IMG/VR virus record: IMGVR_UViG_3300018005_000018
Coordinates: 1-56,022 of that record
Origin: a virus
Lineage: Duplodnaviria > Caudoviricetes
Direction: 5' to 3' (one strand)
Length of the DNA stretch: 56,022 bases
A model generated the notes under the pieces. The model had not been told where the DNA came from and searched no databases. It worked only from the letters and a program-made list of their open reading frames with translations. Shown here piece by piece: positions 1 through 56,020 of this stretch (positions are counted from its first letter, which is position 1; every line of letters begins with the position of its first letter). The position numbers were made by a program, and so were the translations under genes.

Positions 1-3000
1 ATTCGTTGTTATTGTTGTCACCCCCCCTGCACTATTGATCGTAATATCGGAAGTCAAAACAACTGTTGCACCCTGATTAGAAATTGTTATTTGCTTGAAA
101 TCATAGGCTCCCGACCCATCATGAGCATAAGCCCATACAGTTACCGTACCATTACCGGAAGCAGTCAGAAGTCCTGAACTACTTATGCTTGCTGTCCCTG
201 TCCCTGCCACGACACTCCAATTGACTGTCTGATCAGTAGCATTTGTAGGTACGACTGCCGTAACAAAGAACTGTAATGTCCCCCCATTCGTTACTATTGT
301 AGTTGCGCTACCAGCACTATTAATAGTAATATCCTGCGTTAATATTACTGTGCTCTGGTTCGATATTGTTATTACTCTATCTCCATAGACACCCGATCCA
401 TCTGTGGCACTTGCTCTTACCGTCACAGTACCATTGCCTGTTGCTTGTAATAGGCCAGAACTACTAATTGTACCTGTTCCTGTGCCATTTATTACTGACC
501 AGGTAACTACCTGTATTGTGGCATCTGAAGGGGTTATAAGAGCACTCATCTGAAGTGTTCCACCATTAGTTGTTATTGTTGTGGCATTACTAGCACCAGA
601 GACACTTATTCCTGTTACCAGCACAGCACCTTTTGGATTATACTCAAATGCACCTATTGATGGTGGGCTGTTCCATAACTGTTTATCACCATCAAGAGTC
701 TGACCAGTAATTGCCACTCCTGTCCCTATTAATCCAGAAGTTGAAGCAAGATGTAAAAATCCTATTACTGGCAAACTACCATCTGCCTGACGGGATGCAG
801 TTAATGACGAACTACTTATGCTTGTGAAATCATCCTTAGTAACTGTATGACCGTTCCAACTATTATGATCTGCTGTTTGAGTGGATGTTTGAAAAATATC
901 ATTTGAACCATTATTAAAACTGATATTGTTTTTTAAAATATCTGCACAAGCAAAATATTGAAACTCGTACCCCTGTATGCCATTCAAGTAAGACACATTA
1001 TGATATAAAATCATCTTTACATCTGCTGACTGTTGTGAAAATCCTACCATTCTGTTATTATAGGAAACACAATTTATTGCTGTTCTCTTTGTAACTCCCG
1101 TATAATTCTGAGGGTCTGCACCAAATTTAAAGCCATTGCCTCCTCCTCCTACCGGTGTTGTTTCATCCAACGCATATCCCTGATGCCATGCCCAACAGTT
1201 TGTTAAGATATATATGCCACTATAACCCTGCTCTTGAAACATATCAAAACCATCAGAACTATTGTTCCACGACCGACATCCTGTTAATCTGATGACATAA
1301 TCATTAGAACAAAATCCTACATCAAAACCATCTGCGGCATCACCTTGCGAACCATAAGGATTATAGTTATCATGCGAATCACAGTTAAGAAAATTACATT
1401 CATCACCCGAAGGAACCCTTACCCCCATTCCTGGACCACCATTATTATGAGAATTACATTGTTCAATATTAATATGATTTGAACTTTCAATATACACTCC
1501 CTGACCACCCCAATGCGATCCTGTAGAAAGTTGATTACAATTTTTAACTTCTATGCCTTTAATGTGCCAGTATGAAGAACCAAAGATTCCTATTCCTATC
1601 CGATTGTAAGAAGTTGACGTAAGATTTGTACAATCCATAATAGGTGTTTCACCCGGATAGGCATATACCTGATAATAGTTGACTGATGTTCCATTCTTAC
1701 CACTTACAGCTACCGCACATTGATTGCCGTTTGACACATAACCTGTAGGTGTATAAGTTCCACCTCTGACATAAAGAATGTTCCCGGCAGCTATATGATT
1801 AACACCATAGTCAATCGTTGCCCAAGGATTACTAATTGTCCCGGCATTGCTATCACTACCTCCTGTAGCAGCTACATAATAAGTAGGACTAGAACTTGAT
1901 GTGGTTGTAAAGGATGCCTCTGCTCCATACGCTGTACCTGCACTATTAGTTGCATAGGCACGAACATAATAAGTAACACCATTTGTTAATCCCGTTATTG
2001 AACTGGTGAATGATCCTGTTCCAGTACCATCAGTGGTATGACTATTCACATTAGTAGGTCCGGAACTTGTTTTCCAACATACTCCTCTATAGATAATAGC
2101 TGCACCACCATCCTGAGTAACCGTACCACCGCTCATTGCCGTTGTTGAGGTTATCGAAGTGATAGCAGTTGTAGTGACAGTTGGTGTTGTTACACCTATT
2201 GCTGCATAAACTCTTGCTCCGACCTGCCATGTGCCATTCTGTACTGATGTTGCTGGTGCAGAATTTACCGTCCATACAGCCGATGTTGAAAGTCCCGTGT
2301 TCCATGTAGAACCTAAATCAGTACCATAATTAATTGATTGACGATTAGATGGAACTAAATCAGTAGTATTATTAAAATTAGGATTAACAACAACTGAATG
2401 TGTATCGTATCCTAATGCCTGCCATTGAGAAAATGTTTTCTGAACACCCAAATATTCAAATAATGGAGTGCCTGCTTCGCAATAAAAGATATTGTAATCT
2501 GATTCAAAACCCGTTAAACATCCACTCGGAGATGCTCCATTATAATAATCACTACCGTTGACAACAATATTATAAATCTGATATTTTGTATAAAAGATAT
2601 TATTCTTAATTTTTATATTAGTTGCAGGATAACCTGGATTCATATTGTTTTGGCTATTATAATAGACATGGACTATTCCCCTCCATGTTCCTCTTACTAA
2701 ATTGTTAGTAAAAGTAGGACTTGTATTATAAAATGTATTATTATATATAGGAACATTATTAATGCCTAATAAATAGCAACACACTAAAGCATCTCCCTGA
2801 AAAACATTATATGCCCATCCATTTGATGTATACGTATTACCAAGTGATTTACAGATAATCCCAGATGGCATATTATCAAAATAATTATATTTAACAAGTG
2901 CATTAATATTATTATGCACCATGCAACCATGCACAAGTTGATTATCAACTACTGTGCCTACCCATGTAAATTTATTTCCAGTTATAACCTCTCCATCCAA

Positions 3001-3246
3001 CATGTCATAAGTACCATTGTCCACATCATTATCAGTACCGGCCTGCAACATATACATATTAATTGTAGCTGACTGCAAGCTATTGTTCATAAAAGTAAAA
3101 GTAGTAGGCACGGTCTGTTGAGCATTATATCCCTGGGTATCAGAAGAGCCGTATACAAAAGACTGGTTTTGAACAGTAACTACCTGTTGTGCTTTTATAG
3201 CAAACGAAAATATTAAAAGAAATAAAATAATAAGTAATTTTCTCAT
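1..3246 (-). CDS. Secreted-type multidomain protein, 3'-truncated by window edge: signal peptide, beta-helix-like region, FN3-like domain, polysaccharide lyase family 9 (PelL-like) domain, tandem Ig-like (Big_2-type) repeats
   Basis: Absent from the ORF track because it has no stop in the window; translated by hand from ATG 3246 (ATGA overlap with upstream stop): MRKLLILFLLIFSFAIKA/QQV..., TYYVRAYATNSAGTAYG (FN3), YYVAATGGSDSNAGTISNPWATI, AADGFD, SWNNSSDGFDMF, GNGFKFG, then repeated VTWSV...GTGTxxISSSGLLxAxGNGTVTV units. Confidence 0.85.
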   Translation of the reverse strand, partial: MRKLLIILFLLIFSFAIKAQQVVTVQNQSFVYGSSDTQGYNAQQTVPTTFTFMNNSLQSATINMYMLQAGTDNDVDNGTYDMLDGEVITGNKFTWVGTVVDNQLVHGCMVHNNINALVKYNYFDNMPSGIICKSLGNTYTSNGWAYNVFQGDALVCCYLLGINNVPIYNNTFYNTSPTFTNNLVRGTWRGIVHVYYNSQNNMNPGYPATNIKIKNNIFYTKYQIYNIVVNGSDYYNGASPSGCLTGFESDYNIFYCEAGTPLFEYLGVQKTFSQWQALGYDTHSVVVNPNFNNTTDLVPSNRQSINYGTDLGSTWNTGLSTSAVWTVNSAPATSVQNGTWQVGARVYAAIGVTTPTVTTTAITSITSTTAMSGGTVTQDGGAAIIYRGVCWKTSSGPTNVNSHTTDGTGTGSFTSSITGLTNGVTYYVRAYATNSAGTAYGAEASFTTTSSSSPTYYVAATGGSDSNAGTISNPWATIDYGVNHIAAGNILYVRGGTYTPTGYVSNGNQCAVAVSGKNGTSVNYYQVYAYPGETPIMDCTNLTSTSYNRIGIGIFGSSYWHIKGIEVKNCNQLSTGSHWGGQGVYIESSNHINIEQCNSHNNGGPGMGVRVPSGDECNFLNCDSHDNYNPYGSQGDAADGFDVGFCSNDYVIRLTGCRSWNNSSDGFDMFQEQGYSGIYILTNCWAWHQGYALDETTPVGGGGNGFKFGADPQNYTGVTKRTAINCVSYNNRMVGFSQQSADVKMILYHNVSYLNGIQGYEFQYFACADILKNNISFNNGSNDIFQTSTQTADHNSWNGHTVTKDDFTSISSSSLTASRQADGSLPVIGFLHLASTSGLIGTGVAITGQTLDGDKQLWNSPPSIGAFEYNPKGAVLVTGISVSGASNATTITTNGGTLQMSALITPSDATIQVVTWSVINGTGTGTISSSGLLQATGNGTVTVRASATDGSGVYGDRVITISNQSTVILTQDITINSAGSATTIVTNGGTLQFFVTAVVPTNATDQTVNWSVVAGTGTASISSSGLLTASGNGTVTVWAYAHDGSGAYDFKQITISNQGATVVLTSDITINSAGGVTTITTN

Positions 3247-3845
3247 GGTGTAATAATTGAAGTTGTTGTTTGAATATAACATGAACCATTTGATTGTACT
3301 TGCATCCGGCCTATAAACACCGTGCCGGTAACTCCTGAATCATAAATAGGATATAAATGAGCTAATGTACAACCAGCAGGAGCAGTAAACTGTAACGAAA
3401 CACGATGAACTGTGGTTGATGTTTGAGAATAATAACTTGTTGGACTAATTATATTATTATCGTTGATTTGGTCATAAACTGACCATTTCAAATTAGTCAT
3501 TGTTCCCCTAGTACAATCAAAAGAAACATAATAAGTAACCCCAGGTACCACTGTGATATAATGACTTGCACCGGAATACCAGTCAACATATTCCAGATAA
3601 TAACCAGTCCCGCTTGTTGTTATTTGCTCAAGCGTTGTATTACCAGCAAGATCAACTGCCTGATTCTGAACAATGGCAATACCAGTCCCACTCCATGCAT
3701 CGTATGAAGCAGGGTCTATCACCTCTGACCATTTCAAAAGGTTTTGAGTACACCCGCCTGCAGAAGCAGCCAGTATACCTATTTTCTGACCAGATAAACT
3801 AATGGTCAGAAATAGTAGTAATAAATATATTAACAGTTTCTTCAT
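3243..3845 (-). CDS. Signal-peptide protein with carbohydrate-binding-like beta-sandwich; probable fibre tip/partner subunit
   Basis: Start MKKLLIYLLLLFLTISLSG/Q, then KIGILAASAGG, NLLKWSE, VVPGVTYYVSF, RVSLQFTAPAG: pattern of CBM-like domains in phage fibres. Confidence 0.65.
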   Translation of the reverse strand: MKKLLIYLLLLFLTISLSGQKIGILAASAGGCTQNLLKWSEVIDPASYDAWSGTGIAIVQNQAVDLAGNTTLEQITTSGTGYYLEYVDWYSGASHYITVVPGVTYYVSFDCTRGTMTNLKWSVYDQINDNNIISPTSYYSQTSTTVHRVSLQFTAPAGCTLAHLYPIYDSGVTGTVFIGRMQVQSNGSCYIQTTTSIITP

Positions 3846-3855
3846 TGTTGTATTA

Positions 3856-3966
3856 TTAATAAAACCCATCAAATTCTGTATCTCTCTGCTGTTCTTCCAT
3901 GTCTATAAGAAGTTTTCTAAACCAAAAGAAAACTATTAAACCGATTATAATTACTACTATTTTCAT
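3856..3966 (-). CDS. 36-aa single-transmembrane peptide
   Basis: MKIVVIIIGLIVFFWFRKLLIDMEEQQRDTEFDGFY; TAATG-coupled to the upstream fibre gene and fills the intergenic gap. Confidence 0.55.
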   Translation of the reverse strand: MKIVVIIIGLIVFFWFRKLLIDMEEQQRDTEFDGFY

Positions 3967-5309
3967 TATTCAAGACTTCCTATTAATTTCCATGTATTTG
4001 TACCTAACTTATGCAGGGAAGCGTCCCCAAGTACTGTTATCCCCAGATAACTCCCCTTACTAATTATTGTAACACCTCCTGTAGCAACTACGGTTGTTTT
4101 ACCTGCTCCTATACATTCTATATTTATCACTGTCCCAATAGGAAAAGCTACCGAGGAATTAAGAGGCACTGTTAATGTATTTGCACTAGCAACATTCATT
4201 GTTATAGTTGTGCCATCATCAGCAAGTTGAAGAACATAACTACTTGTTTCAGGTGTTATGGTTGCATGTTTCAATACTGCCACATCAGCAAGAGGAATAG
4301 TATCTTTTAATACAGCAACAATTGAATCAACCCTTGCAGAGATTGTTACACTTGCCGGGGCAGCACATGTCCAAAGTCCAGAAGCAACAGTCATTACATA
4401 CCCATCAACAGTGGCAGTAATGTTACTTGGTATAGTTACATCTGCTGAACCATCAACAGATATATTATTAACAAGTATTGGAGCGTACCATTTGGTTGCT
4501 GTTCCCGCATTACCCGTAATACTTGTCTGATCGCCTGTGTTTGTTCCAGTTAATCCCAATGCTGTTTTTACAGTAGCAAGAGATGTAACTTCTGGTGCAC
4601 CCGTTCCTGCTGTTGCACGATAAATAAAGGATGCTGTTGCCATATTAGCCATCTTAGCAAGTGTTACTGCTCCATTGGCTATTGTTAATGCTCCAGACCC
4701 CGTCACATCTCCTGTGTGTGTAGCATTTGTTACAAGCCCACTATAAAGGTTATTTATAGCATTATCTCCGGTGTTCGTTCCTGATACAGCCGTTGTTCCT
4801 GTTACTGTAAGCCTCGGTGTAGAACCTCCTGAGACAACAACACTGTTTACGCTTGCAGGAGTTATTGCACCAAGAATAAATGTAAGGTTTGCAGCACTTG
4901 TTGGATTAGCCACACTTGCCGAAACACCATTGGCAGTAGTCACGGCTACTGATGTAACTGTTCCTGCCCCTGATGTTGGTATGTCACCCGATCCTAATAG
5001 AGATATACCACCAACTGTTTTGATATTGGTTGCGCTTACCAATGTCGCTTGCTTAGCATTAAGTTGTGTCTGTATGGCACTCGTCACTCCATGAACATAT
5101 ATAAGTTCAGCATTTGTCGCTGTGAGACCATGCAATAAATTAAATTCTGCTGCCGTAGGAGTTAAAAGAGTGCCCATATATCTTATAGGCTTTGCATACT
5201 TAGTGCTGTCTGTAAAATAGGCTTTATATGAGACAGGATACCATTTCTGAGCAGTACATGATATTGCCAGAATAATCAGAAAAGAAATTAATAATGATAG
5301 TTTTTTCAT
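3966..5309 (-). CDS. Tail fibre-like protein with N-terminal signal peptide
   Basis: Start MKKLSLLISFLIILAISCTA/Q; fibre motifs GVTSAIQTQLNAKQ, GTVTSV, GTNTGD x2, HTGDVTGSGALTI; C-terminal YVLQLADDG...VAFPIGT...NTWKLIGSL domain common at phage fibre ends. Confidence 0.75.
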   Translation of the reverse strand: MKKLSLLISFLIILAISCTAQKWYPVSYKAYFTDSTKYAKPIRYMGTLLTPTAAEFNLLHGLTATNAELIYVHGVTSAIQTQLNAKQATLVSATNIKTVGGISLLGSGDIPTSGAGTVTSVAVTTANGVSASVANPTSAANLTFILGAITPASVNSVVVSGGSTPRLTVTGTTAVSGTNTGDNAINNLYSGLVTNATHTGDVTGSGALTIANGAVTLAKMANMATASFIYRATAGTGAPEVTSLATVKTALGLTGTNTGDQTSITGNAGTATKWYAPILVNNISVDGSADVTIPSNITATVDGYVMTVASGLWTCAAPASVTISARVDSIVAVLKDTIPLADVAVLKHATITPETSSYVLQLADDGTTITMNVASANTLTVPLNSSVAFPIGTVINIECIGAGKTTVVATGGVTIISKGSYLGITVLGDASLHKLGTNTWKLIGSLE

Positions 5310-5310
5310 C

Positions 5311-7101
5311 TTAGTATATGATTTTAATTTTTGCTCCAAGATACTCATTAAGGGTGTCTATATGTAATACATACACACCTCCAAGAAGTTCAATGCTTAT
5401 TCCTATAAGTGAGGTTATGTCATTTCCGTCAGCATCAAGGACAAACACATTATATGGTTCTTGTCCTGTAGTTAATGTAGTAGTTACATCTGTGGTAACT
5501 CCTGCACTTAAATCTTTTGTCTGTAAATATTTCATGTCGTCATCTGTTACTATTGGAATTGAATTATCTGGAATATTGTCATACCAGCACATTGCATCAG
5601 TCGTTAACGCTGCCCATGCTGTGTTGTCGGTTATTATTGGTATAAGAGTACCATCATTATAATGTGTTACGTTGAGGTTTGCTGCCATACATACCTGATC
5701 ACCTATTTTGATTGTATTATAAAGATTCCCATCATAATCAACCATTGTCCCAGGATCAATAGAATCATCTTTGATGAGACGAATAGACCAACCTATCTTT
5801 AATAATGAAGCATTTGTTATAAAAATAGTAGAATCACTATTAAGTTCCCTATCAAGCGCATGAGAAACATCACTTAAATCAGATGCCCAAAATCCACCTA
5901 CATAGTTCAAATTTAAAAAATCACCAGATTGATCACGTAATCCTGCTCCTAAGGCAGTAAATCCACTTGAATTATCTGCTCCTGTATCTTGATCCCAATG
6001 AACCAAACCTGCTTCTTTTAAATCGTTACCAATCACTAAAGCAGACCCTAAATAGTTCTCCAAAGTAACCCACTCAGCATCACTTGGCACGTGCCATCCT
6101 GCAGGTGCAATACTAGCACCGCCAACATTATAGTTCACTGCAAACCAATTATATAAAGCACCATAACCAGCATAAGGAGTAGGCGAGATCCCTGTATTCG
6201 TTGTCTGTAAAGTAATTATATTGGAATTATCGCTTGCGCCAACCTCATTATATGCTCTTACCCGATAAAAATAGTTTGTGACCTTTGATAATCCCGTTAT
6301 TGGAAGTGTCAAAACATCTCCTACATCGAGATCATCATATCCACTTACCATTGAGCTAAACGCACTATCAGTAGCCACATCGAGTCTATAACCTGTTGCA
6401 CCATCTGTTATCTGCCAATTAGCACTGAATGAGAATGGCTGTATATTACTTGCATCCAGAGCCACAGGTGCTAGAGGTGCTCCATCATCAGCGAGCCACA
6501 GCAACCCCTTTAATCCCAAATATTCAAAAACATTATCAAACCCACCTGCCGGTAATGACCGAAATGATGCAATGTCCTGCGCTCCTGTATTTGGAGGAGT
6601 CCAATGTGAATCACCTACCTCTTTAAGATTACCACCTGCAAGCATCAGTCCACCAAGATATGTCAACAGAGTTTCAAACTCTGCTTCAGTAGGTACATGC
6701 CATCCGGGAGGACAGAAATCTGCTTCCATTATCATATCATGCGTGTACAGACCTCCATATATTGACCTATTAGCCTCATCATCATTATAGACCTTGCTCC
6801 CGGGATAATCGGCAGAATAGTTCCTTTTCATCCATGTCTGAGTACCAATCACCGCAATATCAAATCCTTGGTAAATAAATTCACCACCAATGGCAGCACC
6901 ATAATAGGTAATGAGTGTATCGGGATTGATTAATACGGAAATTTCGCTTTGTAACGTTTCTGCATTACCTGATTGATTTTCCTCATCTGAAGATAATGTG
7001 CGACTATTAAGTAAGTCTGTGTAATCTCCTTCGGGAATCAAGGCAGGTGTATCGTCTTTATTAAGACCTCCAGTAAATTTATGGAGAGACTTCAGTTGCA
7101 T
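5311..7101 (-). CDS. Muzzle/tail-stabilisation-like N-terminus fused to FISUMP (Fib_succ_major) domains and FN3
   Basis: FTGGLNKDDTPALIPEGDYTDLLNSR N-terminus; IGTQTWMKRN...YGGLY...CPPGWHVPTEAEF; YRLDVATD...YFYRVRAYN (FN3); YGALYNW...APAGWHVPSDAEW...GWSIRLIKD. Confidence 0.75.
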   Translation of the reverse strand: MQLKSLHKFTGGLNKDDTPALIPEGDYTDLLNSRTLSSDEENQSGNAETLQSEISVLINPDTLITYYGAAIGGEFIYQGFDIAVIGTQTWMKRNYSADYPGSKVYNDDEANRSIYGGLYTHDMIMEADFCPPGWHVPTEAEFETLLTYLGGLMLAGGNLKEVGDSHWTPPNTGAQDIASFRSLPAGGFDNVFEYLGLKGLLWLADDGAPLAPVALDASNIQPFSFSANWQITDGATGYRLDVATDSAFSSMVSGYDDLDVGDVLTLPITGLSKVTNYFYRVRAYNEVGASDNSNIITLQTTNTGISPTPYAGYGALYNWFAVNYNVGGASIAPAGWHVPSDAEWVTLENYLGSALVIGNDLKEAGLVHWDQDTGADNSSGFTALGAGLRDQSGDFLNLNYVGGFWASDLSDVSHALDRELNSDSTIFITNASLLKIGWSIRLIKDDSIDPGTMVDYDGNLYNTIKIGDQVCMAANLNVTHYNDGTLIPIITDNTAWAALTTDAMCWYDNIPDNSIPIVTDDDMKYLQTKDLSAGVTTDVTTTLTTGQEPYNVFVLDADGNDITSLIGISIELLGGVYVLHIDTLNEYLGAKIKIIY

Positions 7102-7391
7102 ATTGAAGCCTCCTGATTATCAATCTGTTTTTTTATCTTCTTCAATTCCCATATCCTTCTTGAAGCATCACCCAATAAATCTTCTTTTTCACATCCAAGC
7201 AAAACCGAAAATTGTAGATCAGATTCGCCATATTTATTATAATGGAGTTGTAATTTTCTTGAATGATGTCTATTAAGCCTTAATTCAGATAAATGTTTAG
7301 TCCATCTATTTGAAATATGTATAGCACTACCAATATAGCATCGCTCTGGTTTAATTTTAGATTGAATTTGATATATGCCTGATAATTTCAT
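7092..7391 (-). pseudogene. GIY-YIG homing endonuclease remnant (internally deleted)
   Basis: SGIYQI...CYIGSA...RWTKH...KLQLHYNKYGE present, but the EQ..ID...FN segment carrying the catalytic Glu/Asn is missing after KEDLL. Confidence 0.7.
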
Positions 7392-9016: not shown

Positions 9017-9741
9017 TATTGTCCGGTGTTAAGTTGTTGATTAGCGATCTGTACTATATCGGCTTCACGAAGATTGATACCGATATATTTTAGCATAAGA
9101 GCAATGAGCGTTATATGCTCATCTTGAGGCCATTCTACTTCGATTGAGTTCGCAGCATCGTATGTGATAAAACCATCTCCCTGAATATATGCAAACACAG
9201 GATCACGAGGCCAGCGGAAATACGCAAAGTCCACGCTTGAGATTGGGACAGGATTCAGTTCTGATACTTCCCATGGCCAGATATGAATACCATCCTGCCT
9301 TACTGCTCCTACTGGCATTCTTAGTGTTGGTCTTTTGGTGTAGTTTCCAAGCCTTGTAGCAAGTTGGCTTTCCCGAAGTATCTCCACACCTCTTGGAAGG
9401 ACTGTGAGTTTCTTATTGATGTTTATGGCGAAATTATAAATGATCTCGTCCCTGTGAGCATAATCTGAAGGATAGGGCAACACCCCATTAACCAATGATA
9501 CATTTGGAAGAAATTTCTTGAACACCTTTAAGTCATCTGTTACTTTTAAAGTGATCTCCACATATTCCCTCGGTATAGGTTTCCCTGGTTGATATTCCTC
9601 TGGCAGTCCGTACTTGTTCCGAAAAAGATCAATATTAACAACCTTTATGAGTTGCTGGAATCTTTCTGGTGTAATAACATTCCCGTCAAAATCTTTATTG
9701 ACTATGTAGTTCAATAAATTATACATTTCAAACAAAGTCAT
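9016..9741 (-). CDS. Putative tail tubular/ring protein (crAss-like, P22 gp4-like position)
   Basis: YIVNKDFDGNVITPERF, YFRWPRDP, YIGINLRE motifs. Confidence 0.7.
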   Translation of the reverse strand: MTLFEMYNLLNYIVNKDFDGNVITPERFQQLIKVVNIDLFRNKYGLPEEYQPGKPIPREYVEITLKVTDDLKVFKKFLPNVSLVNGVLPYPSDYAHRDEIIYNFAININKKLTVLPRGVEILRESQLATRLGNYTKRPTLRMPVGAVRQDGIHIWPWEVSELNPVPISSVDFAYFRWPRDPVFAYIQGDGFITYDAANSIEVEWPQDEHITLIALMLKYIGINLREADIVQIANQQLNTGQ

Positions 9742-10136
9742 AATATATAGAGTTTAAAAGTTGAAGGGAGGATGCCCAATAATCTATCCATTGCTTTTTT
9801 TGATTCTGCTACGTCAAGCACACCATCACCATTTATGTCCTCAAAATAGCTGCCGACCAAAATACATCCAAGAGTATTTTTTGTGAAGTTCCCTTTATGA
9901 ATCAATATACCTTCCCTGTTTGGTTCATTAAGTACGCTGAAACACCATCCTTTCTCTGGATGATTGATCTTTTCAACATCATAAATACCTTCTGGTATGC
10001 AGGATATGTTGTGCTGATTTCCCAAATCAGGTAATTCAAGTGTCACACATTTATAATCCATAACGCTGCCATCCATAACTAACCAACAACCCTTTGTCAT
10101 GTCTTTTTGATATGCTCTGCTAATAATTGATTTCAT
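9738..10136 (-). CDS. DUF5675-type L,D-transpeptidase-like protein, candidate endolysin
   Basis: TLELP...ISCIPEGIY...REGILIHKGN...TLGCILVG His/Cys motif. Confidence 0.8.
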   Translation of the reverse strand: MKSIISRAYQKDMTKGCWLVMDGSVMDYKCVTLELPDLGNQHNISCIPEGIYDVEKINHPEKGWCFSVLNEPNREGILIHKGNFTKNTLGCILVGSYFEDINGDGVLDVAESKKAMDRLLGILPSTFKLYIL

Positions 10137-10735
10137 TTCTTCACATTTGTTTTTTTCATTTTTGTCGTATCACCTGTAAAATCTTTGGGATACATCCTGA
10201 GTTGATCCCCATTAGGTAAAACCGTAGGCATACCCCGACTGTTAGTTATAACCGGCATCCCCAGATTATCTATCTTACGACTATTCTTAGTGGTATGTAA
10301 GTTATTGAGGAATATCCCTGTCAAACCTATCAGCGCCATCACAACCCAGATCACCCTTTGCCATCCATCTTGTTTTTTCTTTTCTTCAAGGTCTGCTGCA
10401 ATCTTATCCCTCTCATCACGTTTTTCAACCTCATTTACCTGCACTCCCACTCTTGTTATCTCAGCAAGAAGGACATTATGGTTCTCATTGATTCCTTTTA
10501 ATTCCTCATGCACTCCTTCAATCGTCTTTAGTACTCCTTGCTGCCGTTCATTGATTAATGCCACCTGTCTGCAAAGCCCTTTCTCTGGATCACCATTACC
10601 CGTTATGATAACAGACAACTGCTGATTGCTCTTTATAAGATGGTTGATGTCATCTTTCTCAGAGCATTTATGAATATATACTCTTTTTGTTTTTGCCCGA
10701 ATGGCGGGTTTGCGCTTTGTTGCCATATCATCCAT
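10133..10735 (-). CDS. Coiled-coil membrane protein, possible lysis accessory (holin/spanin-like)
   Basis: GNGDPEKGL motif, heptad-rich middle, one TM segment (VIWVVMALIGLTGIFL); adjacent to candidate endolysin. Confidence 0.45.
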   Translation of the reverse strand: MDDMATKRKPAIRAKTKRVYIHKCSEKDDINHLIKSNQQLSVIITGNGDPEKGLCRQVALINERQQGVLKTIEGVHEELKGINENHNVLLAEITRVGVQVNEVEKRDERDKIAADLEEKKKQDGWQRVIWVVMALIGLTGIFLNNLHTTKNSRKIDNLGMPVITNSRGMPTVLPNGDQLRMYPKDFTGDTTKMKKTNVKK

Positions 10736-10823: not shown

Positions 10824-12353
10824 TTAGTCTAATCTTACTAACGAAACATTGCTTAAATCAAAAACATCACATCCTGATGAAGGCTCTGCCTCTATCTCAA
10901 ACCATCTATCAATATCATCATTACAAGTTAAATACACAATGTGTGTTCCATTTGTATATCTTCCATGTGTCCCCGCTGGAAATTCATCCCAATAACAACC
11001 TCCATTTGCTAAAAACGATAAAACTGCAATAGTTGGACAATTTGATATTGTAAATTCTAATTTATAATGTTTCCCAATTCTATATGGAATTTCCTGCCTT
11101 ATTACTGCTGATAATGGTCCTCTATGAGCAACACCTCCACTTATTGTCCAATCACCATAGACAAATAACCAAATATCTCCATTCTCCCATATTTCCGAAT
11201 TTATAAAATCTCCATTAAATAATAAATTACTTCCTATTGTATTTTTCCCAAACGGTTCTTTTCCATTAGAATACATATACTCTGTAATTGCATCTCCTAT
11301 CACTCCTTGCTCTCTATAATTAAATGCCCTTCCTACAAATATTAAAGATAATTGATCATCACTAAAATTTTGTTTAACCCCAAAATAATCATACGTTAGA
11401 ATCAATAATTCAACTTCAATATTTACTCCTGAAGAAATGTTTCCCCTAGCATCATCTCTATAATAATAAGGATGAATTGTGAATGAATTACTCGCTGTTC
11501 TTGAAACTATGGTTAAACCAGCATTTCCTAATTTGGGGATTGCAAAATTATAACTTGCATAATCGTTTATCGCCCCTTCTATGTGCTGATTCGTTGTATT
11601 AATCGTATTTAATTGCAAATTTGTATCAGAACTTACGCCATATCCCCCAAATTTGTATCTATGAGATATAGGATCATGTTTTCTTGAGTATACACCAAAA
11701 CTACAATTATTTGCAGCAAATCTTACTCCATGCGTTAACGGTATATAATTTGTTCTTGCATATTGACTTGTCCCATCTCCCTGTATACCTTCAAAAGCAG
11801 TCCACGTAGGGGCAACAACATCAGTTATATGATTAGCATTTTTAACCAAATTTCTATAACTACTTTCCTTTGTTTCTCCTGCCAATAGCCAAATACAATC
11901 AAAAGCATCAGATAAGTTTGTAATAGATAATCCTGTTTTAATTTTCCTAATTAAATCGTTTATTTTAATTTTGGTCAAATCACTTAATGGTGTTGCCAAA
12001 CCATTAATATATGTTGTTAATTCTGTTTCAGGAAAAACATTATTTATAACTGCATGAGACATTGTTCCTTTCCATACAACTGTTAATGAATTGCTATAAA
12101 CAACCGAAGTAGATAAAACCAATGTATAAACACTTCCCGCCCATGAACCACTTAAGACAGTAAACCCTGCAATAGTAAAATCACTTGCAACAAATTTATT
12201 ATTTGCTTTTGAACAAGTCAGAACAACATGAGTCGGTGCAGCATCTTCAACTTCTGCTGAAATTAGTGTATTCCAGTAACTTTGCCACGATTGACCGGAA
12301 CCGCCAAGACCAATATTAGTCTTAACTCCAATATTTGTACGAATACCGGGCAT
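10824..12353 (-). CDS. Putative head fibre/decoration protein with lectin-like domains
   Basis: Gly-rich N-terminal IGVKTNIGLGG, GIQGDGTSQY (LamG-like), C-terminal NLLFNGDF...WTISGGVA module; no signal peptide. Confidence 0.55.
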   Translation of the reverse strand: MPGIRTNIGVKTNIGLGGSGQSWQSYWNTLISAEVEDAAPTHVVLTCSKANNKFVASDFTIAGFTVLSGSWAGSVYTLVLSTSVVYSNSLTVVWKGTMSHAVINNVFPETELTTYINGLATPLSDLTKIKINDLIRKIKTGLSITNLSDAFDCIWLLAGETKESSYRNLVKNANHITDVVAPTWTAFEGIQGDGTSQYARTNYIPLTHGVRFAANNCSFGVYSRKHDPISHRYKFGGYGVSSDTNLQLNTINTTNQHIEGAINDYASYNFAIPKLGNAGLTIVSRTASNSFTIHPYYYRDDARGNISSGVNIEVELLILTYDYFGVKQNFSDDQLSLIFVGRAFNYREQGVIGDAITEYMYSNGKEPFGKNTIGSNLLFNGDFINSEIWENGDIWLFVYGDWTISGGVAHRGPLSAVIRQEIPYRIGKHYKLEFTISNCPTIAVLSFLANGGCYWDEFPAGTHGRYTNGTHIVYLTCNDDIDRWFEIEAEPSSGCDVFDLSNVSLVRLD

Positions 12354-37559: not shown

Positions 37560-38108
37560 ATGAAAAACTTACTTTTGATTATCCTTCTCTGCGGTGCTTC
37601 CCTTGCTTCCGGCAATTCTGACTATCATACATTGTACATTATTCAAGTTCATGGTATAATAAAACCAATTGATAAAGTGGATGTTCAGTTTAAACTATTT
37701 GCGAGCCATTTAAGCCTCATTGAGTCCTCAAATGATTGGAAGGTCGTCAATAGCCTTGGAATGATAGGAAAATACCAGTTTAGCCCTGCTACGCTTGAAA
37801 TTCTCGGATACCACAACATAACTCCCGAAAGATTTAAAGCCGATCCGTCTATTTTTTCGGAAGCAATGCAAGAACAGGCTTTGCAGGATCTCATAAAAAA
37901 TAATCAGAACTCACTTAAAAAATTTGCTTCCTATATTGGTCAGGTGATCAATGGAACACTTATCACAAAAGCCGGGCTTCTCGGAGCTGCTCACTTAGCT
38001 GGTGTCGGGGGTGTTCAGAAGTTTCTCACAAGTGCTCACAATGCCACAGACTGCAATGGTGCATCTGTACAACGATATTTAACAGAATTTCAAAATTTTA
38101 ACGTATGA
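37560..38108 (+). CDS. Lysozyme/transglycosylase-like protein with N-terminal hydrophobic signal
   Basis: IESS (catalytic Glu) ...GKYQF...AAHLAGVGGV; MKNLLLIILLCGASLA. Confidence 0.75.
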   Translation: MKNLLLIILLCGASLASGNSDYHTLYIIQVHGIIKPIDKVDVQFKLFASHLSLIESSNDWKVVNSLGMIGKYQFSPATLEILGYHNITPERFKADPSIFSEAMQEQALQDLIKNNQNSLKKFASYIGQVINGTLITKAGLLGAAHLAGVGGVQKFLTSAHNATDCNGASVQRYLTEFQNFNV

Positions 38109-38251
38109 AGACAAAACAGAAAGAGTTTAAAGACGGTCTTGGTCACGAATTTGCCGAAGCGCCTCATGTCTTTGGCTGCCTCATTGTCGGGGTTATCCTG
38201 ATGATTGCTGTATATGAATTATTTCGTTATCTTATTCATTTAAAACCATGA
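38105..38251 (+). CDS. 48-aa single-TM protein
   Basis: ...VFGCLIVGVILMIAVYELF...; ATGA-coupled. Confidence 0.6.
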   Translation: MKTKQKEFKDGLGHEFAEAPHVFGCLIVGVILMIAVYELFRYLIHLKP

Positions 38252-38412
38252 AAAAATTTACAACATTAATCTTTTTGGTTGTCTGCTTTTTCTTTCTCAT
38301 GCTGGCAGTAGGTGGCGATAAATCCGTTGCAGCAAGGCTTGTATTTCTACTTTTATCTTTTGGTGCTGTATTTTCTGCGCTTTACATTCACTTCGAAATG
38401 GAGAAAAAATGA
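38248..38412 (+). CDS. 54-aa two-TM protein
   Basis: MKKFTTLIFLVVCFFFLMLAVGG...LVFLLLSFGAVFSALYI; ATGA-coupled on both sides. Confidence 0.6.
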   Translation: MKKFTTLIFLVVCFFFLMLAVGGDKSVAARLVFLLLSFGAVFSALYIHFEMEKK

Positions 38413-39513: not shown

Positions 39514-39993
39514 TTATCTAAACATATTGAAATTCACAATAAACTCAATGGCAAGTGCCGTACAATGTGTTGACATATTAACACCAGTCCCAACATCAAA
39601 AGAGATTCTATTTGTAAATTCAGGTATATCTCTGTGAGGAAAATACCTCAACCCAATCAATGCCATAACAGACGGTTCAGGTTCATAGTTATATTTCGGC
39701 CTATCATAGTAAACCATTCCTGCCGATGCTGCGGCTGTGGTAAAGTATAAAGATTCCCTTCCAGGATCGGGATTAGTAAACAATGTCAATGCACCTGAAA
39801 AGCTATGGAACCATCTATCCGGATAAAGTAGTTTCATAGGTCTCCATCCTGCAGAAAGTGAAACATTCCCATATTTCAGTTCCATTCCGGCACATCCCTT
39901 TGCTTGGGAATCCCCGATACGTAGATTAATAGTCTGTGCGTTTGAAATTGCCGGAATCATCAAGAAAAATAAAATCAGTTTTTTCATAGCCAT
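39514..39993 (-). CDS. Putative outer-membrane beta-barrel protein
   Basis: Signal MKKLILFFLMIPAISNA/Q; alternating strands (VSLSAGW, LIGLRYF, SFDVGTGV); near-terminal aromatic FIVNFNMF. Confidence 0.65.
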   Translation of the reverse strand: MAMKKLILFFLMIPAISNAQTINLRIGDSQAKGCAGMELKYGNVSLSAGWRPMKLLYPDRWFHSFSGALTLFTNPDPGRESLYFTTAAASAGMVYYDRPKYNYEPEPSVMALIGLRYFPHRDIPEFTNRISFDVGTGVNMSTHCTALAIEFIVNFNMFR

Positions 39994-53083: not shown

Positions 53084-56020
53084 CTATTTTTTAGTTGGCT
53101 TAAAATCAGCTTTAGTCTGAGCAACGGCCTGGTTCCATTCATCCCTTAATCGTACTTGTAATTCCGTTAATTCTGGATTTCTATTATCTGGTTTTTGCTG
53201 ACTTGACTTCCACTGCGATTCTTTCAGGCCAATATGATTCTTTACATTTTGTCCAAACCGGTTAACTGTTATCTCATTGAATGCCTTCACATCTTCTTCC
53301 GACAGTTCAATTTTCTTTCCTCCCCTGTTTATGCTGGTTACACGATTTATGTTCTTAAATGCCCCATATTCCATTAATTTATCATAGACCTCTTTATTTT
53401 GCTCTTTTAAGTGTTCTGTGAAATATACGCTCTTAGGTGTAGGATAGACTTTCTTCTCAGCTTCAGACATCTTGTTATAAAGATCAACTTTGTCATCCTC
53501 TGGCAAACGGTTATACATTTCAATATTGATGTCTTTATTTTCTCCTCCGATATTGTCCAATAAATCCTGTCCTTGGAAAATAGTTATCTTGCCATCCTTG
53601 ACATTTTGATTTATAATATCAGTCATCTTACTAAGATTTTCTTTAGACAATGGCTTGCCGGCTTCTCCTGCTTCGACAATCTTATGTATGTCTTCTCTGA
53701 CCTTCAGCTTATTTTTTTGATTTTCTGATTGCTTTCCTCTGGGATATCTGTCATAATAAGTGTTCCTGATATTCTTTTCTAATGGAGTGAAATAATGCCT
53801 TTCCCTTACACCTATGGTGTTAATAAAATTATCCCATAGCCTGTTATCACTTTGATTCTTTCCCCACCCTTCAGGGAACATCTTCGTTATCTGTGTCGGC
53901 ATTGGTGATGTAACAATAGATTTTAACCAATCCGTTGTGCTCTCAGGGATGCCTTGATAATCACGTCTTGTCAACCCTTCCACCCCTACGCTTCGGAATA
54001 ATGGAGATAACCTATTATATGTAAACCTTCGTGGGTCATTAAATAACTCCCACATATCTTCCGGCACACTTCTCATGGTATATTCATTTTTCTTATAAAC
54101 AAAAGAAAAAGGTTTATCGAAGTGATAATCATCATCAAATAACTTATTCAAAAGCCTTGATGCAACAAACAATGTTCCGCCTAAGATTATTAATGCTCGC
54201 CTCTGCTCTGCACCTTTTGGAGTCAATGCCTGCCCAACAAACTTAGTACGTGCTTCCAGAAAATCCGGTGCTAGTGCCATTGTTCTGAATATATGCTGCA
54301 TGGTAGGGTTTCTACCTATCAAATCATAGTTGAGATTCCCATAAGCAGCATTGGATTGATTGGCTGATAACGCATAAATCTGATCTTGTGAATATTTTTT
54401 TTGGTATCTTTTTAAATTACGGTCCAGCATGTGCTCAGCAGTCGTTAATTTTAATTTTGGTATGTATTCATTAAACAGATATTCCTGTAGTGGCAATATG
54501 GTGTCTTTTATAATAGGAATCTTACTTGCTATGTTTAAAGAAGCGAGCCCTTCTGCGAAATTTGACTTTGCCTGAAAATCATATAACTGCAAGCCACCTT
54601 TTATTAATTTTTGATGCGTAACATCTTCCGGATTAAATTCTTTCAAGCCCCATATAGGATTCACGGTGTGCCCTATGGCATGAAACCCTTCCTGTATATA
54701 ATGGAAGAAAGGTGATAACATAAAGATCGTCTGCTTTGTCACATTAACCCCTTTTGATATTGCCCTCAAAGGAACGGATTTCATCAGATCGGACTTACCG
54801 AGTATGTTTGATAACCTGGTAGCATAATCTGGATGTACAACTAATTCTCCTTTTGCGAATACATTTGTTCCATCTGGTGTTTTTGTTGCCCAGTACCAAT
54901 CCCGGAAAGCCGGATGGTTCACATATTTGTAATCAGATACCTCTTCAGGTTTTGTATAAGGATTCACCAGTGCTGCTTTTGCAATATTCTCATCTTTTGT
55001 CAGGCTTCCCATCCCTGCATTGGCAATAACAGGTCTGCCATCGGCTGCTTTGCCTTCTGTGAGATTTTTTATGAAAGCACGCGAGTAAAGAGTTCTGGCA
55101 AATCCTTTTGAGTAAGCAGGGATGATGTCTTTGAAATCCTTATCTGCTCTGAACCCTGCCTGTTCCAGATCAAAGAAAGTCTTAAAAATTCTTCCTCTGG
55201 CATATTTGAAATTGGTGTTTAATTTGCCATTATCAAAACCACCTATTACTTTTGTCACCTTTGGGTCATCCGGTCTGACTCCAAAGTGTGTGACATAATT
55301 TTCAACCTGTGATTTTAATATTCCCGCATCATATCCCATTTTAAGCATATCATCAAAATATTCTTTTATGGAGTTTGCTATCTTTATCTCATCAGGAGTA
55401 AGGGTTTGCGCATCTTTATATCCCTGTTTGAAAGCTACCTTTGAATCATTCTCTCTCTTTTTAAGTGTCTCAACATCTCCATCTGCTTCAATATAATTCA
55501 CAATGGCATTCCTGCGTGATCTTAAAGGGATTTTCTTCTCTGCAAGTTTTGTAAAATCCATTAATGCCTTATCATTTATCTGCTTTGCCAGACTCCAATC
55601 ACCAAGTGCTTGCTTATAATCTGTCCAGTCAGGCATACTCGAATATGCTTTCCATACAGCTTTGGCATTTTCTTTTAAATTGGTCAAGTTGTTCCTGATC
55701 TTATCATCAATATTCTTAGGTGCAAATTTTGAGATTTTGTTTTTTATACTCTGCAACCATTCTTTCATCGAGACTTTCTGTGTAGGAACAGATTTTAAAT
55801 CTTCAATCAATTTAGCTTCCCGTTCTGATTTTATTTTTCCAAACTCAGTTTCTTCAAAAGGAATAGGTTTCTCTGCTTTAGCCATTTCTGCAAGTTCGGG
55901 GACATTATATATTTTCTCTCTCAAATCCTGTTCTTCTTTCTTTGTTATTTCACCTGCCTTCAAAGCATCCTGTACATCACCAATGGATCTATATGTCTTG
56001 CCCTTAAACTCTATTCCTTT
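53084..56020 (-). CDS. C-terminal part of a giant virion/ejection-type (large polyvalent-like) protein, 5'-truncated by window edge
   Basis: Frame stays open to the window end; helical, ENYVTH, A..SN.AYG.LNY, LAPDF motifs seen in phage internal virion proteins. Confidence 0.6.
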   Translation of the reverse strand, partial: KGIEFKGKTYRSIGDVQDALKAGEITKKEEQDLREKIYNVPELAEMAKAEKPIPFEETEFGKIKSEREAKLIEDLKSVPTQKVSMKEWLQSIKNKISKFAPKNIDDKIRNNLTNLKENAKAVWKAYSSMPDWTDYKQALGDWSLAKQINDKALMDFTKLAEKKIPLRSRRNAIVNYIEADGDVETLKKRENDSKVAFKQGYKDAQTLTPDEIKIANSIKEYFDDMLKMGYDAGILKSQVENYVTHFGVRPDDPKVTKVIGGFDNGKLNTNFKYARGRIFKTFFDLEQAGFRADKDFKDIIPAYSKGFARTLYSRAFIKNLTEGKAADGRPVIANAGMGSLTKDENIAKAALVNPYTKPEEVSDYKYVNHPAFRDWYWATKTPDGTNVFAKGELVVHPDYATRLSNILGKSDLMKSVPLRAISKGVNVTKQTIFMLSPFFHYIQEGFHAIGHTVNPIWGLKEFNPEDVTHQKLIKGGLQLYDFQAKSNFAEGLASLNIASKIPIIKDTILPLQEYLFNEYIPKLKLTTAEHMLDRNLKRYQKKYSQDQIYALSANQSNAAYGNLNYDLIGRNPTMQHIFRTMALAPDFLEARTKFVGQALTPKGAEQRRALIILGGTLFVASRLLNKLFDDDYHFDKPFSFVYKKNEYTMRSVPEDMWELFNDPRRFTYNRLSPLFRSVGVEGLTRRDYQGIPESTTDWLKSIVTSPMPTQITKMFPEGWGKNQSDNRLWDNFINTIGVRERHYFTPLEKNIRNTYYDRYPRGKQSENQKNKLKVREDIHKIVEAGEAGKPLSKENLSKMTDIINQNVKDGKITIFQGQDLLDNIGGENKDINIEMYNRLPEDDKVDLYNKMSEAEKKVYPTPKSVYFTEHLKEQNKEVYDKLMEYGAFKNINRVTSINRGGKKIELSEEDVKAFNEITVNRFGQNVKNHIGLKESQWKSSQQKPDNRNPELTELQVRLRDEWNQAVAQTKADFKPTKK

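Follow-up and report, generated by a model that had tools for sequence, protein, structure and literature searches.

Organization of the leader-bearing module

The IMG/VR viral assembly IMGVR_UViG_3300018005_000018 (Caudoviricetes) was analyzed over its whole length of 56,022 bases, referred to below as the window, and was found to carry at one end a module of tail-associated genes whose large products, a fibre-like protein, a putative fibre tip and a beta-helix protein, each begin with a predicted Sec-type leader. Nearly every long Open Reading Frame (ORF) of the window is encoded on the minus strand, as are all genes of the module. The first of these encodes the 447-amino acid (aa) fibre-like protein P0004 (3966–5309 with its stop codon, 3969–5309 without). 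It is followed by an ORF of 36 aa (3856–3966), by the 200-aa tip protein P0003 with leader, docking motif and a beta-sandwich resembling a carbohydrate-binding module (CBM; 3243–3845 with stop, 3246–3845 without), and by residues 1–1082 of the 1181-aa beta-helix protein P0002 (1–3246), the C-terminal 99 residues of which lie beyond the contig end. Immediately upstream stands P0005, a tail protein of 596 aa without a leader (5311–7101 with stop, 5314–7101 without), which is taken as context, outside the exported set. Pfam identified Fib_succ_major in three stretches of P0005 together with fn3, and over its first 51 residues P0005 shows 37% identity to the N-terminus of a 1551-aa structural protein of the uncultured phage MW202828.1. 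It also resembles gp097 of phage phi40:1, a virion protein by tandem mass spectrometry (MS/MS), a likeness judged by eye from the sequences and not from an alignment.

The genes are closely packed. A single base separates the stop codon of P0005 from the ATG of the fibre gene, the fibre TAA overlaps the next ATG as TAATG, 10 bases precede the ATG of P0003, and the stop of P0003 overlaps the start of P0002 as ATGA. With gaps of 1–10 bases or overlaps throughout, the four module genes and the tail gene form a single translation unit, and they belong with the tail genes to a late operon. The transmembrane peptide that the initial annotation had placed between two of the large genes was recovered as the 36-aa ORF, which has a hydrophobic N-terminal helix and a charged tail and no PHROG family match. 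A membrane peptide of about 33–36 aa with a hydrophobic N-terminus and an acidic/basic tail accompanies leader genes both here and in phage phi18:3, where it follows them as gp089 of about 33 aa (12893–12994 of L163). No sequence similarity between the two peptides, and no family, was found.

Leaders and their conservation

Leaders were called by a home-made rule, not by SignalP, in which any in-frame start within the first 45 codons was allowed, a setting generous to the controls. Nine of the 80 non-overlapping ORFs of the window pass the rule, and P0004, P0003 and P0002 have the strongest cores. Each of the three starts with two basic residues, followed by an uncharged core of 11–12 residues (mean hydropathy 3.0–3.4), small residues and Gln. 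The n-region, a core within 8–15 residues and small residues at −1 and −3 that mark a Sec/signal peptidase I (SPase I) leader were thus found in all three under this rule, with Gln at +1 in 3/3. The leader of P0004 (residues 1–20; 5250–5309, minus strand) starts MKKLS and has a predicted SPase I cut at SCTA/Q21, with an alternative lipobox cut before C18. That of P0003 (residues 1–19; 3789–3845, minus strand) would be cut at SLSG/Q20 and has no lipobox. In P0002 (residues 1–19; 3190–3246, minus strand) AIKA is followed by Q20–Q21, with the predicted cut before Q20. The initial annotation had described three large genes beginning with K/R, a hydrophobic core and small residues ahead of Gln, and the translations and the rule agree with it. 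Exposure of Gln by SPase I, with cyclization to pyroglutamate, is a rule (Q-rule) of the Bacteroidota according to PMC10653852.

The other six ORFs passing the rule comprise what reads as the nucleotide-binding loop of a PP-loop-type enzyme, an improbable plus-strand ORF, two membrane proteins, and two real-looking leaders at 37560–38108 (plus strand) and 39514–39993 (minus strand). The minus-strand ORF encodes a protein of 159 aa with Gln after its leader (ISNA/Q), a fourth Q-rule protein, for which Pfam and PHROG scans gave no match. The plus-strand ORF encodes a 182-aa leader protein with a possible lipobox (LLC/G), similar to a tail-lysozyme PHROG (E 6.9e-8) and with a weak match to a Pfam transglycosylase-like domain; a 54-aa membrane protein follows. 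Judged by these matches, 37560–38412, on the strand opposite to the late genes, would encode an endolysin exported by Sec together with a small partner resembling a holin, and this leader-bearing lysozyme-like gene implies that the phage probably already holds one protein in the periplasm until lysis. By the same rule P0005 and the gene at 10824–12353 have no leader. Leaders are therefore concentrated in the module but not exclusive to it, and of the earlier suggestion that they are module-specific the leaderless state of gene 10824–12353 stands, while the two further leaders speak against the rest.

Of 8000 sequences scored against the fibre, 2921 were homologues at E ≤ 0.001, and the best 119 were inspected. 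Thirty three were flagged as having a leader, comprising 31 real cases, one miscalled start and one plain lipoprotein without Gln. In 31/31 real cases Gln lies at the predicted site or at most three residues from it, and the leader sequences diverge widely. Every match covering the N-terminus of P0004 has a leader; the leaderless matches that were read cover the central shaft or the C-terminal domain only, and many leaderless relatives begin with another well-known fibre N-terminus, of the MADKKIS type. For P0003, an exhaustive HMMER search returned 491 representatives at E ≤ 0.001, and among the 154 sequences examined a leader was found in 53, with Gln at or near the site in 48 of these. The survey of homologues with and without signals that had been proposed for this locus thus found leader and Gln together in 31 of 119 fibres and 48 of 154 P0003 relatives. 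Leaders with Gln are also present in the P0002 homologues P0279, P0293, P0329, P0349, and P0358, and Gln was found in 5/5 leader-bearing phage-type homologues inspected. On a 13.5-kb metagenome contig (L083) a giant virion-type protein is followed by six consecutive leader-bearing genes, whose products are one fibre, a pair of beta-helix proteins and three proteins of smaller size, and the start of the next gene resembles the 509-aa protein of the window. Among 185,579 species genomes, 27 weak fibre matches were obtained, many of them in Bacteriovoracaceae. None of the 27 covers the leader region or the C-domain, and the full-length fibre family is therefore a phage family and not a cellular one.

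By this comparison, export of all three proteins is well supported and very probable. The earlier claim that the subunits are exported to the periplasm gains from the leader architecture and from the Gln conserved in homologues, both as called by the home-made rule.

The accepted view is that all parts of a tailed-phage particle fold, and are put together, in the cytoplasm. It might accordingly be supposed that the leaders are not used for export, serving as a tether on the cytoplasmic side of the membrane, as a handle for assembly or trimerization, or as a segment cut by a phage protease, with the fibres joining particles in the cytoplasm. Such an explanation keeps to the textbook assembly route. 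It also fits a paper on Bacteroides phage binding proteins which treats the absence of a signal peptide as expected of phage proteins and as a mark of phage origin (PMC6199706), and the reading of some capsid leaders of Porphyromonas gingivalis phages as prohead segments removed by a protease (PMC10367356). It is nevertheless highly improbable in view of the full n-, h- and c-region build and of the Gln rule of the phylum in 31/31 and 48/53 homologues, which has meaning only for SPase I and a periplasm-facing cyclase. The truly secreted cellular relatives of P0002, which have the same kind of leader, and a Cys pair in P0003 that co-varies like a disulfide, both described below, also argue against it.

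The fibre protein P0004 and the lipobox question

The fibre motifs attributed to P0004 in the initial annotation are present: GTVTSV, GTNTGD (twice) and FPIGT. The shaft is common to thousands of fibre proteins, the C-terminal 100 aa match tail and virion-structural families of PHROG, and the C-domain also occurs in minor tail proteins of named phages. The shaft motif (residues ~49–170) recurs in many Bacteriovoracaceae and Bdellovibrio genomes (L168–L194).

In an AlphaFold2 (AF2) monomer model residues 351–447 reach a pLDDT of 94–97. Only the last ~100 residues are confident, as expected because a trimeric shaft was modelled as a monomer. The C-terminal globular domain (approximately residues 350–447; 3969–4262, minus strand) is a candidate docking platform for P0003. 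Foldseek matched it to the capsid spike of phage Pa223, the baseplate of Klebsiella phage KP1, residues 1–335 of CBA120 TSP4, and T4 gp9 and gp10, with TM-scores that are low if normalized on the whole query, since the C-domain alone aligns. Such domains serve as platforms for the attachment of further fibres or spikes.

A lipobox rule of the PROSITE type ([LVI..][AST..][AGS]-C at positions 15–35, an uncharged stretch and K/R near the start), fits Cys18 of P0004, which stands in an ISC context three residues before Gln. By this rule a lipobox is found in 22 of the 34 leader-bearing fibres, P0004 included, vs. 1 of 53 in the P0003 family, where the sole protein concerned is a fibre fusion. Several of the fibre lipoboxes have a textbook sequence, LTAC or LVAC, and the fibre homologue P0106 has a textbook LAGC box without Gln. 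Close fibre orthologues keep Gln but vary at the lipobox residue, which is Tyr in L083 and Cys in both L085 and L081, and in seven clades Cys is missing altogether. This switching between Cys and Tyr with Gln kept suggests that lipidation is dispensable and that the cut before Gln is the constant. P0004 itself may be cleaved ahead of Gln, lipidated at Cys, or undergo both, one after the other. Lipidation, if it occurs, would hold the fibre on a membrane for some time at least, which would favour anchoring.

These lipoboxes bear directly on a different explanation, a serious rival although less probable than the favoured one, in which the proteins are exported but never enter the particle. P0004 would then be a lipoprotein fibre anchored in the infected cell's envelope, or on vesicles that it sheds, and carrying the sugar-binding tip, and the enzyme would act in the periplasm or after release. 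The difference in lipobox frequency between fibre and tip families and the box of P0106 without Gln speak for it, whereas the exchange of Cys for Tyr between the L083 and L085 orthologues speaks against it; the other evidence on either side is weighed below.

The tip protein P0003 and its docking motif

By its AF2 model (mean pLDDT 90.4) P0003 is a carbohydrate-binding-like beta-sandwich (jelly-roll) of the CBM4/16/22 type and a predicted sugar binder. Foldseek gave 124 matches at E ≤ 0.001, among them 4bj0_A (E 3.7e-6, TM-score 0.54 on the target), 8xmz_A (TM-score 0.66 on the target) and baseplate-fibre chains of Pseudomonas phages Pa193 and E217. A Pfam scan of P0003 found no family match. 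Within 35 aligned relatives, Cys32 and Cys189 are both present in nine, both absent in 25, and found singly in one. Joint presence or absence in 34/35 is the pattern of a disulfide, and the earlier suggestion that export could give disulfides is plausible to the extent that this predicted pair co-occurs. Cys32 was also considered as a lipobox residue and rejected: a Lys lies between core and box, presence of the residue goes with that of Cys189, and relatives lacking a leader have this motif at their start.

The mature N-terminus of P0003 (residues 20–31; 3753–3788, minus strand) holds a candidate docking motif containing GILAASAGG. As the initial annotation had stated, it follows the leader just past the predicted cleavage site, at a distance of four residues. 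In leader-bearing relatives of P0003 a motif of the form G[IV][ILV][AG]S lies 2–5 residues after Gln, and a few leaderless relatives begin directly with it.

BLASTP found the end-domain of P0004 as the C-terminus of leaderless fibres in 13 fetched loci. In 13/13 the next gene, within 0–4 bases, starts M-I-[ILV]-[AS]-[ST]-[HS]-G-[IV]-[ILV]-[AG]-S, one example reading MIIATHGILASAGG. The claim that such partner genes carry the motif at their very N-terminus is therefore true of all these leaderless loci, in which it stands at residue 7 from the start; the 13 loci yield nine distinct partner starts and are hence not 13 independent cases. The remainder of the 13 leaderless partners gave no BLASTP match to P0003 at E ≤ 1e-4. 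With partner bodies unrelated and starts conserved, it is the N-terminal strand alone that goes with the fibre end-domain. In another protein, P0134, a leader, an N-terminal stretch of the P0004 type (37% identity, E 1e-8) and a P0003 domain are found in one chain.

We infer that the motif is a docking strand for the fibre end-domain that must sit near a free N-terminus, for which removal of the leader would be needed in P0003. A motif freed only by leader removal is in turn indirect evidence for cleavage and for a shared compartment of fibre and tip. A complex prediction with three copies of P0004 residues 320–447 and P0003 residues 21–200 gave a score of 0.01 (mark 0.32) in a run without controls, and weighs neither for nor against docking. 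The model of fibre-tip docking is plausible, and gene order and motif give it new backing.

The beta-helix protein P0002

The full-length form of P0002 is available as the identical protein P0278 (1181 aa), encoded on a 66,346-base contig. A Pel9A-like right-handed beta-helix (PF22842) covers residues 454–748 of P0002 (1003–1887, minus strand), with 59.4 bits against a cut-off of 25.2 (E 3.9e-16) and 62.0 bits in P0278. Big_2 immunoglobulin (Ig)-like repeats (PF02368 and PHROG major-tail Ig-domain families) extend from approximately residue 851 to the contig end (1–696, minus strand) and occur in three stretches of P0278, the whole Pfam scan of which gave PF22842, PF02368, and PF13229 only. 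An apparent second beta-helix ahead of the Pel9A-like one was read from its repeats and has no Pfam family. With this double beta-helix, P0002 is a predicted polysaccharide-cleaving enzyme. A scan of viral contigs with P0002 found no relative.

Cellular homologues of P0002 (P0308, P0329, and P0376), on contigs of 443–588 kb, have the same kind of leader and carry PF18962. The beta-helix regions of P0002 are 40–63% identical to P0329 and P0376 over 43–100% of the 800 residues queried. A type IX sorting domain was considered for P0002 as well and rejected, as P0278 has no PF18962 and ends instead in a short C-terminal tail of the GK[IV] type. This ending is common to P0279, P0293, P0349, P0358, and two beta-helix proteins of L083 (6776–8308 and 9835–12516), leader-bearing proteins that differ widely in other respects. 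It is made up of a single or double G-K-[IV] turn with a final Q or R, occupies the place of the type IX sorting domain of the cellular relatives, and may be an attachment peptide. We read P0002 as a host-type secreted enzyme that was probably captured with its leader, the sorting domain being exchanged for the short tail.

Glycosylation sequons

It had been suggested that export could give host O-glycosylation. The D-[ST]-[AILVMT] sequons cited for this are indeed present in P0004 (DST34, DSI328, and DTI336), but the suggestion found no support: three sequons compare with 1.9 expected, a count reached in 601 of 2000 shuffles and thus at chance, P0003 has none, and P0002 has none vs. 4.1 expected. 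Mature P0278 likewise has none vs. 4.5 expected, a result given by 36 of 5000 shuffles. With three vs. 1.9 in P0004 and zero vs. 4.1–4.5 in P0002 and P0278, enrichment of O-glycosylation sites in the module was rejected. The absence of sequons from P0278 may reflect avoidance of the host O-glycosylation motif, or may be a side effect of its repeat composition.

The phage, its genome and the contig ends

The window is the entire linear assembly, and no terminal repeat was found in it. PHROG matches include a large terminase, a portal, a capsid-type structural protein, a primase-helicase and RecE/RecT-like recombination proteins; no tRNA genes were found in the 56,022 bases. Terminase and portal are 24–34% identical to those of short-tailed phages of Flavobacteriia, namely Cellulophaga, Flavobacterium, Tenacibaculum, and Maribacter podophages. 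These relatives comprise 68 Flavobacterium 'elemo' records, 15 Cellulophaga records, Tenacibaculum and Maribacter phages and the uncultured 60.8-kb MW202828.1. A tblastn search of named phages with the capsid protein gave no match. Given these low identities and the unmatched capsid, the phage is, by its sequence, an uncultured podophage of a Bacteroidota host (Flavobacteriia-type), far from all cultured ones.

Two proteins of the window have identical copies on public contigs of 66,028 and 66,346 bases, which indicates that the window is short by ~10 kb. The missing stretch would lie, on the minus strand, after P0002 and before a 5'-truncated protein of 978 residues at 53084–56020 (minus strand), which would be the last 978 codons of a putative giant gene, and it probably represents most of that giant virion-protein gene. 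The 978-residue protein had no family match in Pfam or PHROG scans, and on its position and size alone we take it to correspond to the giant virion proteins that related phages encode, with lengths of 2923 aa (L084), 3859 aa (MW202828.1) and 1691 aa (phi40:1). For phi40:1 the record annotates this protein as found in virions by MS/MS. When the 269-aa structural protein of the window was used as a query, the scan retrieved one locus, which ends at the match and so has no downstream context.

The module lies at the extreme end of a linear contig without a terminal repeat, and P0002 has cellular homologues, features which would also be expected if the region were not phage late DNA at all but mis-assembled host DNA or a mobile accessory cassette apart from the tail. 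This explanation is barely credible, however, as the junctions with the tail gene and within the module are of 1–10 bases or overlaps, and identical proteins occur on the 66,028- and 66,346-base contigs. The G+C content of the module region (0.35–0.40) also matches the remaining genome, being even across the window at 0.35–0.47, and full-length fibre homologues adjoin giant virion proteins in viral and metagenome contigs, with none of the 27 hits in species genomes being full-length.

Three further genes were observed among the structural genes. A 99-aa gene resembling GIY-YIG homing endonucleases (7092–7391, minus strand; Pfam E 8e-7, PHROG E 3e-11) lies between two structural genes just upstream of P0005. 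A DUF5675 protein (Pfam E 1e-24) is encoded at 9738–10136 (minus strand), and a protein of 200 aa bearing a membrane helix at its C-terminus is encoded at 10133–10735 (minus strand).

Comparison with known systems

The nearest parallel was found in Cellulophaga phage phi18:3 (Pachyviridae, Baltivirus), a podophage of Flavobacteriia, in which gp085–gp087 are three consecutive large late proteins with a K-rich start, a hydrophobic core and Gln. One of them is beta-helix/pectate-lyase-like, its counterpart in phi13:2 being annotated as a pectate lyase. In contrast to the window, where the module follows a tail protein, gp085–gp087 lie upstream of the lysis genes and terminase. They have no lipobox Cys, and a pair of fibre and docking partner was not recognized there. 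In phi40:1 and in Flavobacterium phage elemoE this position is taken by leaderless fibres. The notes of the phi18:3 record do not remark on the leaders of gp085–gp087.

Branched receptor-binding complexes built by N-terminal docking are formed by T4 gp9/gp10 with fibres and by CBA120 TSP4 with TSP1–3. P0004 resembles these platforms in the fold of its C-domain and in that the adjacent gene always encodes a partner with a conserved N-terminal strand. Unlike P0004, with its domain at the distal end of the fibre, they assemble in the cytoplasm from leaderless proteins and have their docking domains near the N-terminus of the platform. Phage proteins exported by Sec include endolysins with signal peptides or signal-anchor-release sequences, T5 Llp and Cor-type lipoproteins, and lipoprotein spanins. 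These use the host Sec system and wait or act in the envelope as the module proteins would, with 37560–38108 as the window's own case, but they are small lysis or exclusion factors and not fibre, lectin or beta-helix homologues of the receptor-binding parts of virions. P0002 shares leader and beta-helix with enzymes that are cargo of type IX secretion and differs from them in the short phage-type tail found in P0278 in place of PF18962.

P. gingivalis phages encode Q-rule proteins that perhaps modify the outer membrane of the host, according to PMC10367356 and PMC10653852. Their SPase I leaders exposing Gln have been interpreted there as an adaptation to export and pyroglutamate formation in Bacteroidota (Matrishin et al., 2023; PMC10367356). 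They differ in being five genes annotated without a function in temperate phages, according to the same text, and not a fibre, tip and depolymerase of a structural operon. Exported trimers resembling phage fibres are also known from Bdellovibrio, as the mosaic adhesive trimer (MAT) fibres used for glycan recognition (Caulton et al., 2024; PMC10769870). The recurrence of the P0004 shaft motif in Bacteriovoracaceae and Bdellovibrio genomes agrees with such adhesins of these predators. MAT fibres, however, are products of a cellular predator, and in the genome matches the similarity is to the shaft only, without a match to leader or C-domain. No published description of Sec-leader tail fibres or tailspikes in tailed phages was found in open-access papers and bioRxiv.

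Proposed export and assembly of the module

The reading that we favour is that a receptor-binding and depolymerase module has been rerouted via the host Sec system and is attached to particles at lysis; for this whole chain of events a probability of roughly 0.45 seems appropriate. The N-terminal leaders would carry P0004, P0003, and P0002 across the inner membrane. SPase I would remove the leaders of P0003 and P0002 before Gln, and a host glutaminyl cyclase would turn the exposed residue into pyroglutamate; P0004 would be cut before Q21 likewise, or be lipidated at C18. The fibre may then trimerize in the periplasm, where the freed N-terminal strand of P0003 would dock onto its gp9/gp10/TSP4-like C-domain. 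The product would be a fibre tipped by a CBM-like beta-sandwich, probably stabilized by a disulfide. For this periplasmic assembly we infer a likely course from gene order, motif position and predicted fold. P0002, having lost its C-terminal sorting domain, should remain in the periplasm. The matured proteins would meet the cytoplasm-built particles once the envelope is breached at lysis, and would attach then. This attachment appears to be the weakest step, with an even chance of being correct if export is granted.

Several observations speak for this route. The genes form part of the late structural operon, where their translation is coupled, and fibre and partner by their sequences clearly descend from fibres of virions. 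In addition, the record of phi18:3 marks 12 particle proteins identified by MS/MS, and three of these (gp085–gp087) have leader and Gln.

Other observations weigh against it. The MADKKIS-type virion-attachment start is not found in P0004, where it is replaced by the leader and a different short stretch, and no virion partner was found for the mature N-terminus. The lipobox of P0004 and of most leader-bearing fibres points the same way, as does the membrane tethering that it would bring if used. Leaderless receptor-binding candidates are already present in the phage (P0005 and the 509-aa protein), so that the exported set need not be structural. MW202828.1, the closest complete relative, has no leader in the 12 structural-region proteins checked. 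The analogy with phi18:3 is drawn from the notes of its record, and BLASTP of its gp083–gp095 against the four module proteins gave no match at E ≤ 0.01. The leader calls, finally, come from the home-made rule and not from a trained signal-peptide predictor.

Some of these points also favour proteins that stay with the infected cell, the explanation raised above by the lipoboxes. In such a role the module could mask or destroy the polysaccharide receptor, loosen capsule or slime near burst, or stick infected cells to new hosts. It would suit the loss of the canonical virion-attachment N-terminus from P0004, the leaderless receptor-binding candidates of the same phage, and the secreted enzymes with PF18962 among the cellular relatives of P0002. 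Bdellovibrio, moreover, shows that fibre-like trimeric adhesins can stand on a cell surface (PMC10769870), with shaft matches in Bacteriovoracaceae, and the Q-rule proteins of P. gingivalis phages were read by their authors (PMC10367356) as envelope modifiers. On the other hand, the genes are coupled within the late structural operon, between the tail protein and what longer contigs suggest is the giant virion-protein gene, and not among early or accessory genes; the phi18:3 leader proteins are among only 12 particle proteins detected by MS/MS; and a cytoplasmic enzyme would be released at lysis equally well, so that export needs another reason.

The favoured route of export and attachment at lysis may be extended, more tentatively, to virions built in two compartments by some tailed phages of Bacteroidota. 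Head, tail and injected proteins would be made and assembled in the cytoplasm, and fibre, lectin tip and depolymerase would be exported, given pyroglutamate ends and disulfide bonds, and fastened just after the breach of inner membrane and wall, the exported gear possibly being held at first by a lipid anchor in the periplasm. If this is true, lysis would be the last step of virion assembly, with host export and signal-peptidase functions as determinants of infectivity.

Implications for phages of Bacteroidota

The observations new to this analysis are the CBM-like fold of P0003, the motif/partner rule in 13/13 loci, the fibre lipobox, the loss of the sorting domain from P0002 and the lack of sequon enrichment. 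On the favoured reading, fibre, docking partner and depolymerase would have switched jointly to an export route, with a docking motif that is exposed only after leader removal. If so, host Sec, signal peptidase and glutaminyl cyclase would shape the infectivity of the phage, and receptor-binding proteins of this kind would need export-aware expression in phage engineering, host-range prediction and depolymerase mining. It would also offer a testable reason why the fibres of Bacteroidota phages resist annotation. Should the proteins instead stay with the cell, they would represent a novel type of envelope factor, shaped like a fibre and expressed late. In both cases the question is open to bench experiments, thanks to the cultured relative phi18:3.

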